Shown: positions 6,001-12,000, counted from the first letter of the stretch. The stretch is 64,000 nucleotides of DNA from Escherichia coli (GCF_011045215.1 NZ_CP049201.1), one strand, 5' to 3'. Program-made: the numbers.

Positions 6001-9000
6001 GTATATCAACGCGGTTTTTTTGATGTATTTCCTTCTCGTTAGGAAATGCTGACATTTAGCCAGATTGATGCCGTCGCTCAGACAATTAAAAATAAGGTCG
6101 CAACGTTTCGTGAGGAAATTATCGAAAGCAATAAAGGTAAAGTCCGTGAAACGCTGGAGCAATATTTACAGGTACTTGAAGAGCAATTGAGCAGCCATCA
6201 CTGCTTTTTGCAAAAGATAATGCCGGAATTTGAAAAATGTCGGGTTGCATTCAGAAATGCGACTGGTGAATTTGAACGCCGTATCGCGAACAGTCGTCGT
6301 AATCGCTGGAATACCCTGTTTAATGACCTGAGCAATGCCAGTGACGATATTGTCGAAGATAATTTTGGTGATAACAGTGCTATTTCCACACGGATCCGTC
6401 GTGAGTATGAAAAGCGCCGTGAAGTTATGGAACAAGTGATGCTGGAGGATACCGAAGAGAGTGTAAAGGTATTACAGCAGCAAACACTTCAGGCGGTAAA
6501 TCGTTTGCTGAAAGATATTCACAATGTGGAACTTCAACACCCCCTCAGTTTTGCTCACAGCCGCAGTATTGAGTTTAGTGGTGAGATGGTACCCCGTTAC
6601 GAGCTGGGGGTGACTGATTTCAGTTCAATGGCTTTAAAAGTTGGCAGTTATGCCATGTCAGGCAGTGCGATTGGCAGCATCTTTCCCGTTATTGGTACGC
6701 TCGTTGGCTCTGCGCTTGGCGCGCTGGTCGGCATAATAATGACCGTTGCAGGCATTTTTACCAGTAAAGCCTCAAAAATACGTAAAGCACAAGGAAAAGT
6801 ACGCGACAGGCTGGAGGAGGTGCGGGATAAATCTCTCGACAGCGTTGTCGATGAAATCCGCCTCCTGGTTGCTGCTATTGAAAAAGAACTTGAGAGTGGC
6901 CTGCTGCAAAAAGTCAACGATATGCAGGTGGCTCTGCAACAGCCTGTTGCCATTTTCGAAACACAAATCAGTCGAATCATAACATTAAAAAAACAACTGG
7001 AGGGCATGCCTAATGGAACAATTCAAACAGTTCAGTATTGAAAAACAGGCTGCGATTAACTCGCTATTACAGTTGCGCGGAATGTTAGAAATGCTGGGAG
7101 AGATGGGGATAAACATCAGCGACGATTTACAAAAAGTCACTTCTGCAATTAATGCCATCGAATCTGATGTCCTGCGTATTGCTCTGTTGGGGGCGTTCTC
7201 CGATGGCAAAACCAGCGTTATCGCCGCATGGCTGGGTAAAGTAATGGATGATATGAATATTTCCATGGATGAGTCCTCCGATCGGTTGAGTATTTACAAA
7301 CCGGAAGGTCTGCCAGACCAGTGTGAAATTGTTGATACGCCCGGGCTGTTTGGTGATAAAGAGCGCGAGGTGGACGGGAGACTGGTGATGTATGAAGACC
7401 TGACCAGACGCTATATATCTGAAGCACACCTGATTTTTTACGTGGTTGATGCCACGAACCCGCTCAAGGAGAGCCACAGCGACATCGTGAAATGGGTATT
7501 GCGCGATTTGAATAAACTTTCTTCAATCATCTTTGTTATCAATAAAATGGATGAAGTGACCAGCCTGACAGATCAGGCACTGTTTGACGAGCAGGCGGCA
7601 ATTAAAAAGGCGAATCTGAAAGGCAAATTGCAACGTGCAGCGGATCTTACCGCTCAGGAGTGTGAGCAGCTAAATATCGTCTGCGTTGCCTCAAACCCAA
7701 ATGGTCGCGGCTTAACGTACTGGTTTACTAAACCCGAACATTACGAAAGTCGTTCGCGCATTAACGATCTTAAAAATGCTGCCACCGAAATACTGAAAAC
7801 TAATGTGCCAGAGGTCTTGTTGGTGAAAACAGGTATGGACGTGGTGAAAGACATTGTCATTCAGCGTATCACCCAGGCCAGCAGACACCTCGATGAACTG
7901 AATACCTTTGTCGAGAAGAATGACGAGGATATGCACCGTTTTAGTAACGACATAAAGCAAAGCCGCATTGAGGTTAAATGGCTGGCTGGAGAATTATTTG
8001 AAGAGCTGAACCTGATGGAAAAACAGCTGATGAGCCAACTGCGTCCACTCGATCTGGACGATATCCGCCCGTTTATGGACGATGAGTTGGGATATACAGA
8101 AGATGGGGTTGGCTTTAAGCTTCACCTGCGCATTAAGCAGTCAGTTGATCGCTTTTTCGAACAGTCGACAGCGGTCTCGCAACGCTTATCTGATGACATT
8201 ACTCGCCAGTTGAGCTCCAGCGAGAGCTTTCTAAGTGGCTTAGGCGAGGGGGCGTTTCGTTCTTTAGGCGGGGCCTTTAAGGGGGTGTCGAAAATTAGTC
8301 CGGCGACGCTCAAAACGACAATTTTGGCCGCACGCGATACGATTGGCAAACTAACGGGATATGTCTATAAATTTAAACCCTGGGAGGCCACCAAACTGGC
8401 CGGAAGTATTGCCAAATGGGCAGGTCCTGTGGGTGCAGCGTTTACGATTGGTTCTGATCTATGGGATGCCTATAAAGCACACGAGCGGGAGCAGGAACTG
8501 AAAGAAGTAAAAGCCTCGCTGGCGAAAATCATTAAAGAGCCGTTTGAAGATATCTATGACGTGCTGAGCTCTGATGAGAAAATGTTCGCCTTTTTTGCAC
8601 CGCAGATCCAACAAATGGAGCAGGTTGTTACTGAGCTGGCAGAGAAAAGTCAGGCTATTCGCGACAACCGGCAGAAACTGAGCCTTATTCAGACGCAGCT
8701 TGCACAACTAATGGTACCTGCCACAGAAAACCATACTGCCAGATAGATGCATAATGCAGTTCCGTACACCTGTGGTTGAATAACAGCAGACTCTTTCATG
8801 ATTATCTGGATTGAAAGAATGTCTGCTGCTTATTATCGGAAATATAACTTACTTAACACATGAGGTATAAATCAGTGAGATTATTGTTAAGGGGCGTTGT
8901 TGGAATGATAATGGTCTGGTTGGTCATTTATTTCGGAATGGAATTACTTTTTATCTCCGATCGGGTTCATCCGGTATTAAGAATAATTGTTGTCCTGGGA

Positions 9001-12000
9001 ATGTTATTCCTGATGATAATGATTGCGGGCGGTATGTATCGTTCTCTTTTGTCACGAAAGAAAACATCATGACGTTCCTGTTTACGCCGCTACATTTGTG
9101 GTGGCTTTATGATTGTTCAGAATAATGAATTTACCTGTCGCGGCATGTTCAGCGACCAGCGCCGGACAGAAATATCACTTTCACTCAATTATTATGAAAA
9201 TTAATCTTCCGTTTATACACTGGCCGCGGATTTGCAATGATAAGCGCCTCGTGTTATCTGTGGCTGCCTTTACCCTTTCTAATCTCCTTGTTTCCTCCGG
9301 CGCACATCTGATCTACCGGGTGTTATTCTTTATACTGGCACTTCTTATTATTAAGGCAATGAAATCGCTTACGTTGCGTTTGATTCTGGCCTTTCCGTTC
9401 ACATTACTGACCGCGGCAGATATCAGTATCAGCCTGTATTCATGGTGTACATTTGGCACCACATTCAATGATGGTTTTGCAATCAGTATCCTACAGACAG
9501 ATCCTGATGAAGCAATAAGAATGTTCAGGATGTATGTCGTCTATGTTATTGCGTTTATTATCCTCTTTTTATTGTTCGTCTGTTCAGCAATAAATAAAAC
9601 GTCCTCATTGCCTTCGGGAAAGGTCACGGTAATTACATTTTTATTGTTAATTACAGTAACGTTATATTCTTCCTTTCAGTTTGCGTTGAAGAAACAGTAT
9701 CAAATAAATGAAGTTGATCCTTACATAGTCGCTTCCCGGTTTGCCACATATACCCCTTTCTTTAATCTGAACTATTTTGCACTGGCCGCAAAGGAGCATC
9801 AGAGATTAATGACGATTGCTGATACCATACCTCACTACGAGCTGATGATTACAGACAATAATATTGATGAATTTGTACTGATCATCGGTGAATCAGCAAG
9901 GACTGATAACATGTCCATTTACGGGTACTCGCGGCCAACCACACCAGAGCTTCAGAAACAGAAATCACGACTGAAACTGTTCACTCAGGCAATCAGCGGG
10001 GCACCTTATACCGCCCTTGCGGTACCGTTGGCATTATCTGCTGATACTGTGCTGCATCATGATGTTCGCCATTACCCCGATAATATTATCAACATGGCGA
10101 ATCAGGCAGGGTTCGATACCTGGTGGCTCAGTGCGCAGTCCGCTTTCCGACAGAACGGAACGGCTGTGGCCAGTATCGCCATGCGGGCCAGAAACAGAAT
10201 TTATGTCAGAGGCTATGATGAGTTGCTGCTCCCGCACCTGGCTGAAGCACTGAACAGTAATCCGGGGTGCAGGAAACTGATTGTTCTGCATCTGACGGGC
10301 AGCCATGAGCCAGTCTGCAGTAACTGGCCCAGAGATAAAGCCGTGTTTAAACCACTGGATACAGAAGAAGTCTGCTACGATAATTCCATTCATTATACCG
10401 ACAGTTTGTTGGGACAGGTTTTCGCCATGCTGGAAACGCGTCGGGCATCCGTCATGTATTTTTCAGATCATGGCCTGGAGTATGACCCGACAAAAGAACA
10501 CGTTTATTTTCATGGCGGAATAAAACCCAGCCAGCAGGCTTATCATGTTCCGATGTTTATCTGGTACAGCCCGGCACTGGGAGAGCATGTCGATCGCCAG
10601 ACGGTGAACAGCGTTTTTTCCACTGCGTATAATGATTATCTGATTAATGCATGGATGGGCGTAACCAGACCGGCTCAACCGAAAACACCAGAGGAGGTGA
10701 TTACCCGCTGGCAGAGGAAATCAGATGTTTTTGATGCAAATCATAACGTGTTTAATTACAAAGCATTACGAAATAGCTTTAAATGAGACACCGGAGTAAT
10801 TTAATCCGCTTCATTACTCTCAAAGAAAAACGACCAGAAGATAATTTTCGGGTAACCACGCCGATAGACGGAAAGTTTAATGCGGTACTGGATTATATTG
10901 TTATGGAAGCCATTCGGGGTTACAGATAAGAGCGATATTAGTGAGGGGTACTACTCGCCGGGGCGGAATTCTTTAATTCCCGACGTTGGTGCTTCATAGT
11001 GCCGGATAAAACGGAATATCACAGGCAATCTGTCTGAAGATATTAATTTTTTGATGGTTAACAGCTGTTTTTTGCATCAAAAAAAGCACTGAAACTGCAG
11101 CTGACCCCGGCTGCAGTATGAAGGCACGATAAGGGATTTTGAGGTCTCCTTCGCGCAAATTAATGCGCCAGTGCTAAATCGGTTCCTATGTTCAGAGTGT
11201 AAAATTCATATATAATGGTTTAAATTTATTAAACAATGACTTCGTTTTAGTGTGATGAAATCAGTTTGTTGTTATGACTGTGATCATCTGTCTGTTTGTT
11301 GTCTTTTATCAGTATCCATAAGGCTGCAGCACCAATCAGGTCAAATACCGCCAGTGCAATAAAGAACGGTCCAAAGCCAATGATACTGACAAATGCACCA
11401 ATGAATAAATTAAAAATCAGCTGGCCAGACCATGCACATGCCCCGGCCATTCCGACAGCCGTTGCGACTTCATTCTTTTTAAACAGGTCTGCACCTAAAG
11501 TTGCAGCAACCGTAGAAAGTAATTGATGTGAGAACCCCCCAATACTGATTAATAAAACAGCAATATAGGGGTTTTCTATGATACTGACCAGACCGATAGT
11601 CGTCATCAGTATTGCACCAATAGTAAAAGTAATACGTCGTGAATTTATTAATGAAATTCCTTTTTCATTGAAGAATTTTGCAACAAATCCACTGGCAAGG
11701 CATCCTAAATCAGCCATGAGGAATGGAAGCCATACAAACATGGCGATTTCTTTCAGGCTGAAATGCAGTGTTTCGACAAAGAAAACAGGCACCCAGAAGT
11801 TAATAGTTCCCCATGCCGGGTCAGCTAAAAAGCGGGAAATACCGATTCCCCAAAAGTTTCTTTGTTTCAGGATGTTGATTACAGATGTTTTTTCTTTTTT
11901 GGCATTGTTCAGATGCTTTTCCTGACCATTTTCAATATATGAACGTTCTTCTGGGGAGAGGCGTTTTGCATCTTTTGGATCTTTATAGAAAATCAGCCAG

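Follow-up and report, generated by a model that had tools for sequence, protein, structure and literature searches.

Does a phosphoethanolamine (PEtN) transferase gene carried on a horizontally acquired island of Escherichia coli encode another lipid A-modifying enzyme, akin to the MCR colistin resistance enzymes? The question is raised by a gene in a stretch of 64,000 nucleotides (nt) of the E. coli genome (GCF_011045215.1 NZ_CP049201.1), the whole of which is referred to here as the window. A first-pass annotation had placed the product of this gene in the EptA/EptB/OpgE/YhbX superfamily, had drawn attention to the MCR enzymes as members of the same superfamily and had suggested that a serine in an active-site GESAR motif might signify a different substrate. 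The analyses described here indicated that the gene is an already catalogued, uncharacterized island paralog of yhbX, a core gene of E. coli, and in that sense an ordinary finding. Its product is probably a YhbX-type PEtN transferase that depends on zinc, resides in the inner membrane and faces the periplasm, with an acceptor that would be something other than lipid A.

On the + strand of the window, an open reading frame (ORF) of 70 amino acids (aa) at 8860..9072 is followed by an ORF of 557 aa at 9113..10786, the latter being the maximal frame with a TTG start. Sulfatase (PF00884) was the sole above-threshold Pfam domain in the longer ORF (E of about 1.4e-49 to 1.6e-49). Hydropathy peaks at residues 19-37, 43-61, 63-81, 115-133 and 142-164, numbered from M28, corresponded to five transmembrane (TM) segments within the first ~165 residues. 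An AlphaFold2 model derived from an 81-sequence family alignment had a pLDDT of 91.7 and a pTM of 0.90, and a Foldseek search with this model matched the periplasmic domain of E. coli EptC (EcEptC; 6a82) with an E value of 3.5e-20 and a TMt of 0.79. Comparisons of the model with full-length Neisseria EptA (NmEptA; 5fgn) and with the cryo-EM structure of MCR-1 (9nww) each gave a TM-score of 0.64 over ~550 aligned columns. The best sequence matches among PDB entries were to E. coli EptC (1e-23), NmEptA (5fgn; 7e-22, residues 72-499) and MCR-1. The ORF encodes a full-length PEtN transferase with a membrane anchor and a sulfatase-type periplasmic domain, as the first-pass annotation had proposed.

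The GESAR peptide was present at residues 259 to 263, at the place where EptA and MCR-1 read GETSR or GETAR. Residue correspondences were taken from a MAFFT alignment with MCR-1 and five K-12 paralogs and from HMMER alignments to NmEptA and EcEptC, and the residue roles in MCR-1 and NmEptA were as summarized in a 2023 review (PMC10525099); the MCR-1 counterparts are listed in Table 1. E260, the Glu of the GES or GET motif, aligned with a Zn ligand (NmEptA E240). T300, situated within GAPYTALAVP 40 residues downstream of this Glu, aligned with the nucleophile of both characterized enzymes. D452-H453 matched a further pair of Zn ligands (D452-H453 in NmEptA also), H398 and H467, the latter within YFHGG (similar to YLHGM), matched the second-site histidines (NmEptA H383 and H465, respectively), and H393 matched a conserved His. 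In family alignment A2, the G and E of GES, H366 and H371 were invariant and the T, D and H were nearly invariant, as was E133, the equivalent of the NmEptA residue E114 that contacts the amine of phosphatidylethanolamine.

The serine of GESAR had been read as standing in place of the Thr nucleophile, a substitution that could have altered the chemistry or the substrate of the enzyme. GES in the island protein versus GET in EptA, EptB and MCR-1 is a real difference, but Ser261 occupies the position following the Zn-binding Glu, while the nucleophile column is the one containing T300 and held Thr in 128 of 133 aligned sequences. After the Glu, Ser was the majority state (119/133 aligned relatives), with Thr in only eight sequences (EptA, EptB, MCR-1 and five others). 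GES is also found in EptC, OpgE and YhbX, and both EptC and OpgE are treated as PEtN transferases with assigned acceptors (PMC10525099). As Ser is the majority state and is shared with EptC and OpgE, and as the nucleophile has a column of its own, GES versus GET is, on these alignments, a subfamily marker and the predicted nucleophile is unchanged. The peptide noted in the first-pass annotation was present, but its Ser was not at the nucleophile position. The alignments ruled out Ser261 as the nucleophile, and altered chemistry or specificity arising from this residue is extremely unlikely.

Sequence comparisons placed the protein next to YhbX. Pairwise identity to the transferase was 64% for YhbX (64-66% across comparisons), 24% for EptC, 23% for both OpgE and MCR-1, 20.5% for EptB, 19.5% for EptA and 16% for BcsG. 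A word-indexed protein search produced matches only from E. coli and Shigella, consisting of an island cluster with 89-94% identity (2,955 member sequences) and then chromosomal YhbX with 65-66% identity. In an exhaustive search of 50%-identity representatives, the query fell in the YhbX cluster (P0121, 65%) and the next relatives, at 35-46% identity, were from Buttiauxella, Mixta, Proteus (PMI3040 type), Microvirgula and Paludibacterium. A neighbor-joining (NJ) tree was constructed from 133 sequences and 504 columns with 100 bootstraps, using a query-centered sample. The island alleles formed a clade in 98% of replicates and the island alleles plus YhbX did so in 95%, while EptA and MCR-1 formed a separate clade in 83%.

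Profile searches were also performed. The only NCBIfam models detected were those for PEtN transferases, and all scores were far under the cut-offs: 159.5 bits versus 500 for P_eth_NH2_trans, 131-146 bits versus 404-900 for the CptA models, 131 versus 561 for EptA, 100 versus 660 for another of the curated models, and 42-63 bits versus 1075-1250 for the MCR families (MCR-1 to MCR-13). For the Pfam domain EptA_B_N (PF08019; cut-off of 22.3 bits), the island protein scored 15.5, YhbX 14.9, OpgE 14.7 and EptC 20.9, while EptA (151 bits), MCR-1 (153 bits) and EptB (56 bits) were above the cut-off; these scores therefore gave the same grouping as the NJ tree, with the island protein, YhbX, OpgE and EptC on one side and EptA, EptB and MCR-1 on the other. 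Because the gene is situated in a pheV island after leoA whereas the K-12 order is argG-yhbX-leuU, the transferase is, as judged from sequence and position, a YhbX-subfamily paralog or xenolog of core yhbX and not its ortholog. Phylogenetic placement, which the first-pass annotation had put forward as a check, thus put the protein firmly in a core-gene clade for which no function or phenotype is reported in the searchable literature, and the proposal of a distinctive modification enzyme was essentially set aside.

The nearest known relative, YhbX of E. coli K-12 (b3173, "putative hydrolase/transferase YhbX"), is similar over the full length of the island protein, has the same combination of five TM segments and a sulfatase domain and shares the GES, T, DHGL and YFHGG motifs. 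The settings of the two genes differ. Chromosomal yhbX belongs to the core genome, occurring in 5,159 of 5,426 complete E. coli genomes (95%), is fixed just 3′ of the leuU tRNA gene and has no small ORF upstream, whereas the island gene is cargo paired with a 65-aa ORF, at least 80% of the region being present in 445 of the 5,426 genomes (8%), among them that of enterotoxigenic E. coli (ETEC) H10407. OpgE and EptC/CptA, which are specific for periplasmic glucans and core heptose, respectively, resemble the island protein in having GES, a subthreshold EptA_B_N score and no EptA/MCR-type cysteines; OpgE additionally shares DHGL, and EcEptC is the best match of solved structure. These two proteins differ in being only 23-24% identical to the island protein.

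A cryptic lipid A PEtN transferase of the MCR/EptA type would, when expressed, lower the charge of the outer membrane and raise resistance to polymyxins and other cationic antimicrobial peptides. The island protein has the superfamily, fold, overall architecture, Zn ligands, Thr nucleophile, second-site His and phosphatidylethanolamine-binding Glu of EptA and MCR-1, and the gene is spread horizontally as part of tRNA islands. Identity to EptA and MCR-1 is, however, only 19-23%, the curated EptA and MCR models and the EptA_B_N cut-off were all missed, the catalytic-domain disulfide cysteines of these enzymes (SCGT...PCMF) are absent, and clustering is with YhbX. Despite the presence of the gene in 8% of complete E. 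coli genomes, no link to colistin resistance was found in the searchable literature. The gene was detected on only one of 72,556 plasmid records, such that it is essentially not plasmid borne, and searches upstream for PmrA, PhoP and sigma-E boxes found none with two or fewer mismatches. A lipid A-directed enzyme is, hence, very unlikely, and the relationship to MCR noted in the first-pass annotation holds at the level of the superfamily but is no closer than that.

From its fold, domain architecture, residue conservation, subfamily, purifying selection and distribution, we infer that the protein is probably a Zn-dependent PEtN transferase anchored in the inner membrane and facing the periplasm, encoded by a horizontally carried paralog of yhbX. 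By homology with NmEptA and MCR-1, phosphatidylethanolamine would enter the cleft between the five-TM and catalytic domains, where E133 would contact its amine. Zn2+ held by E260, T300, D452 and H453 would activate T300, which would attack the phosphate to form a PEtN-Thr300 intermediate with release of diacylglycerol, and the PEtN would then be passed on to the acceptor with the assistance of H398 and H467. As the protein groups with YhbX, OpgE and EptC, fails the EptA and MCR tests, has no upstream PmrA or PhoP boxes and is essentially absent from plasmids, the acceptor is expected to be a periplasm-exposed glycan or core-type structure rather than the phosphates of lipid A, and strong polymyxin resistance would not be expected. 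The suggestion that the substrate may differ is, therefore, plausible on phylogenetic grounds but does not follow from a change of nucleophile.

Several observations weigh against this assignment. Biochemical or genetic evidence on the YhbX subfamily was not found in the searchable literature, and both activity and acceptor rest on inference. That literature yielded no function for YhbX or for the Proteus homolog PMI3040 (PMC4013655) and no functional data on yhbX, yjgX or island PEtN transferases, and YhbX is not mentioned in the 2023 classification of PEtN transferases (PMC10525099; zero occurrences of the term). Two MCR-1 residues are not retained, E468 being Leu in the island protein (DHGL, as in OpgE and YhbX) and K333 being Arg. 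OpgE joined before EptC in only 67% of replicates of what was a simple NJ tree of a query-centered sample. The gene neighborhoods of distant homologs (Proteus PMI3040 type and Buttiauxella) contained stand-alone genes and no glycan cluster, and so gave no clue to the acceptor. Start codon signals were weak, with no good Shine-Dalgarno (SD) sequence before any candidate transferase start, ATG 9194 included. Promoter and terminator scans of the upstream region did not exceed shuffle expectation, there being no convincing promoter and only a weak terminator-like match. Lastly, one allele (L015) is frameshifted and another locus (L016) retains only a 160-aa ORF, of unconfirmed identity, at the position of the transferase; as read from these sequences, the gene is dispensable.

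Some of these features could also be explained if the gene were a silent or decaying passenger, that is, an island backbone relic which is unexpressed or inactive. The region is AT rich (44.6% GC) and lacks convincing promoter and SD signals, a 3′-end relic of a YhbX-like gene is widespread, and the subfamily has no phenotype in the searchable literature. Nei-Gojobori estimates of dN/dS for the transferase were, however, 0.12 versus the JNU and MB98 alleles and 0.18 versus the 89%-identical allele (L011), so that low values were maintained across lineages with up to 11% divergence in protein sequence, and both the membrane and catalytic halves were constrained. The ORF is intact, all of the catalytic residues are kept and the linked small ORF is also conserved. 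On this sequence evidence the transferase gene is under purifying selection, and the passenger explanation is quite unlikely. The window allele is a mosaic whose best match among the complete genomes had 97.4% identity; allele differences were clustered around codons 200-233, and in this stretch the window is similar to the L011 lineage.

The start of the transferase was examined by comparison of alleles and homologs. PGAP annotations in other strains place the start at the equivalent of ATG 9125, while a homolog with 89% identity (P0002) begins at the position of M28, as does K-12 YhbX; M28 corresponds to ATG 9194. The codons from 9125 to 9193 had a dN/dS of ~1.5, and from codon M28 onward the values were 0.12-0.18. 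ATG 9125 was lost in allele L015, and a 13-nt indel was present just upstream in alleles L014 and L015. Because of these homolog starts, the shift in dN/dS, the loss of the upstream ATG and the nearby indel, ATG 9194 is most likely the true start and would give a product of 530 aa. A coding N-terminal extension from 9113 or 9125 to 9193 was ruled out by the high dN/dS, the loss of the ATG in one allele and the adjacent indel.

An ORF for the small membrane protein that the first-pass annotation had placed directly upstream was also present, with a refinement of its likely start from ATG 8860 to GTG 8875. The frame was open in all five of the alleles examined and had dN/dS values of 0.28-0.32, compared to 0.64-1.58 in the other two frames. 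In other alleles a strong SD sequence (GAAGGAGAGG) is located 6 nt before the equivalent of GTG 8875, while the window has only GAGG, 9 nt upstream. In the product from GTG 8875, a pair of hydrophobic helices is accompanied by an SDRVHP loop and a tail of basic character. Homologs (n = 50) were all from E. coli; the most distant was 56% identical, and 28 of the 65 columns did not vary. PGAP annotates the ORF in loci L002, L013 and L014; the protein had no match in Pfam or NCBIfam. The 56%-identity homolog was again situated between leoA and a short ORF (160 aa, identity unconfirmed) at the transferase position. No homolog was found upstream of the 89% allele L011 or of chromosomal yhbX. Taken together, the sequence data suggest that this ORF probably encodes a real two-TM protein of 65 aa, initiated at GTG 8875 and linked to the transferase lineage.

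Linkage, and linkage only, suggests that the small protein is probably a co-inherited accessory or partner of the transferase. A physical partnership would be conjectural, the sole precedent being bcsF-bcsG, in which a gene for a small (~63-65 aa) membrane protein is similarly located immediately 5′ of the gene for a PEtN transferase, the one acting on cellulose. This is an analogy only, as BcsG is 16% identical to the island protein and has a Ser nucleophile and a Cys Zn ligand, and the small proteins have no sequence relationship. The leader between the two ORFs had no Rfam match, and its folding z-score was only −1.9, providing no indication of a leader RNA or riboswitch.

The island location proposed in the first-pass annotation was confirmed by several features. 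This pathogenicity island ends at the tRNA-Phe gene pheV, near which is a tyrosine integrase gene, its GC content is 42.7% compared to 50.9% for the core, and the block is located at selC or pheV depending on the strain. The host is E. coli, the core genes past the boundary (yqgA, speC and nupG) having 99.4% identity to their counterparts in E. coli genomes. In strain JNU the same block is at selC, with 98.1% identity over 80% of the island. In ETEC H10407 the block is also at selC, and tia-leoC-leoB-leoA is followed by a "phosphoethanolamine transferase" (WP_001087989.1) with 95.8% nt identity over 2,040 nt. This H10407 gene, known as orf5 of the tia locus (PAI-tia), is the transferase gene of the window and likewise follows leoA; the window differs in having the island at pheV and a mosaic allele. 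Other strains have a 93-95% allele beside a pheV integrase, behind different cargo.

This arrangement raised the possibility that the transferase is a functional part of the tia-leoCBA module, co-transcribed with leoA and modifying lipopolysaccharide or vesicle lipids so as to alter LeoABC vesiculation, association of heat-labile enterotoxin (LT) or Tia function. The genes are on the same strand, the small ORF begins 114-129 nt past the leoA stop codon, and the order tia-leoCBA-(small ORF)-transferase is kept in ETEC H10407, JNU and many other strains, with a gene for an outer membrane protein (OMP) of the Tia/Hek/Ail type upstream in all of the island loci examined. In L002, L013 and L014, however, the small ORF and transferase are found with wholly different upstream modules, and in L011 the transferase is behind two large proteins of no assigned role. 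Homology between these different island contexts and the window sets in only at ~8871, where the small ORF begins. Furthermore, Michie et al. (PMC4159319) point out that leoABC of other bacteria lacks a conserved association with tia and the downstream orf5, and leoB contains a nonsense codon in the window while the transferase is intact. Membership of the tia-leo module is, accordingly, unlikely.

The leoB nonsense codon is an in-frame TAG at 6040-6042, where JNU has CAG (Gln), the two genes having 4 nt differences in 1,716 nt. This codon truncates LeoB at residue 238 and probably leaves the strain with an inactive LeoABC dynamin system.

Comparison of loci indicated that the interval from the OMP gene to the small ORF-transferase unit (4657-8746 in the window, 3959-7601 in L002 and 2609-5775 in L011) contains interchangeable cargo. 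This cargo consists of leoCBA, of a helix-turn-helix regulator plus two hypothetical proteins, one of them mis-annotated as a cobalamin adenosyltransferase (L002, L013 and L014), or of two proteins of 555 and 499 aa with no Pfam domains (L011). A small beta-barrel OMP gene of the Tia/Hek/Ail/Lom type was present upstream, on the same strand, in each island locus examined that had a YhbX- or YjgX-like transferase (tia at 3591-4346 of the window, L001, L002, L011, L013-L016 and L022). K-12 opgE is arranged tail-to-tail with ompX (L008 4451-6598), and the OMP pairing could reflect either inherited synteny or a functional link. In K-12, yhbX lies directly 3′ of the tRNA gene leuU (L004 5989-8159) and eptB adjoins the tRNA gene proK (L006 4617-6476); PEtN transferase genes are thus repeatedly tRNA adjacent, giving the appearance of former islands whose remnants became fixed.

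Downstream of the transferase and convergent with it is a gene (11247-12539, − strand) for a major facilitator superfamily (MFS) transporter of the D-galactonate/ACS type (TIGR00893, 324 bits versus a cut-off of 395). This gene is co-inherited with the transferase in several islands (JNU, L011 and L013) and is followed by insertion sequence and integrase core fragments at 12965-13161. A 48-aa ORF at 10783-10929, which overlaps the transferase stop codon (ATGA) and is called as a gene in L011, is probably not coding, as six of seven nt differences were nonsynonymous.

A second lineage of island-borne PEtN transferases was detected in the pheU island of E. coli SCU-484 (L022 2409-4093). Its 500-aa protein is OpgE-like and 91% identical to K-12 yjgX, of which it is the intact form. 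YjgX, a pseudogene in the KpLE2 element of K-12 with an intact 500-aa form in pheU, pheV and selC islands, resembles the YhbX-like island gene in being island borne and adjoining a tRNA integrase and an OMP gene, and the two have been grouped in the literature as "YjgX or YhbX" (PMC6174562). It differs in being only 27% identical to the window protein and closest to OpgE (30%, E of 7e-74), and identity of the window gene with K-12 yjgX was ruled out, the latter being a separate OpgE-like lineage. Kinship with Lpt-O, the plasmid-encoded O-antigen PEtN transferase of Shigella flexneri, was likewise rejected, BLASTP comparisons with the island alleles and the K-12 paralogs having E values of >0.1 throughout. 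The L022 transferase is directly followed by a 3′-end relic of a YhbX-like gene, which has 45-50% identity to residues 493-552 of the window protein. Matches of 98 nt (window 10676-10773) in most of ~1,500 genomes without the full gene are probably to this relic, one such locus having been inspected.

Table 1. Positions in the window of the transferase gene, its predicted functional residues and the adjacent features
Feature	Position	Strand	Details
YhbX-like PEtN transferase coding sequence	9194..10786	+	530 aa from ATG 9194 (most likely start); ORF, Pfam Sulfatase and dN/dS
N-terminal membrane domain	9248..9685	+	five predicted TM helices plus periplasmic bridging helices; hydropathy and AlphaFold2 helices
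E133 (membrane domain)	9509-9511	+	NmEptA E114; HMMER alignment to 5fgn, ilQTdpdEa versus vlQTtaaEs
GESAR motif	9887..9901	+	E260, Zn ligand (MCR-1 E246); S261, subfamily marker
T300 codon, predicted catalytic nucleophile	10010..10012	+	MCR-1 T285, NmEptA T280
Remaining metal-site and catalytic residues H393, H398, D452-H453, H467	10289..10513	+	MCR-1 H390, H395, D465-H466, H478
Gene for 65-aa two-TM protein (probable), GTG start	8875..9072	+	alternative in-frame starts ATG 8860 (70 aa) and ATG 8905 (55 aa)
Noncoding spacer/leader	9073..9193	+	between small ORF and transferase start; hairpin at 9086-9105; 13-nt indel in L014 and L015
tia (3591-4346), leoC (4657-5316), leoB (5326-7041), leoA (7013-8746)	3591..8746	+	directly upstream of the transferase unit
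Island boundary: tyrosine integrase (20422-21633) and tRNA-Phe pheV (21780-21855)	20422..21855	−	followed by core yqgA, speC and nupG

These results indicate that the island gene should not be read as an MCR-like colistin resistance determinant and that its nucleophile is not unusual. The YhbX subfamily spans a gene of the E. coli core, found in 95% of genomes, and the island copy, found in 8%, the ETEC reference strain among them. The island copy, with its purifying selection and conserved orphan membrane peptide, is a convenient handle for finding the acceptors of YhbX-type enzymes, and it offers a way to check whether any of the phenotypes ascribed to the tia/leo locus are due to the transferase. 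A more speculative suggestion, by analogy and with the odds against it, is that these enzymes form an as yet unassigned class of PEtN transferases whose acceptor is none of the five known for E. coli (lipid A, Kdo, heptose phosphate, periplasmic glucans and cellulose) and that the small protein and transferase constitute a mobile two-gene module for surface remodeling. If so, this module would be analogous to BcsF-BcsG, and ~8% of E. coli, ETEC H10407 among them, would have an envelope of altered charge or antigenicity.

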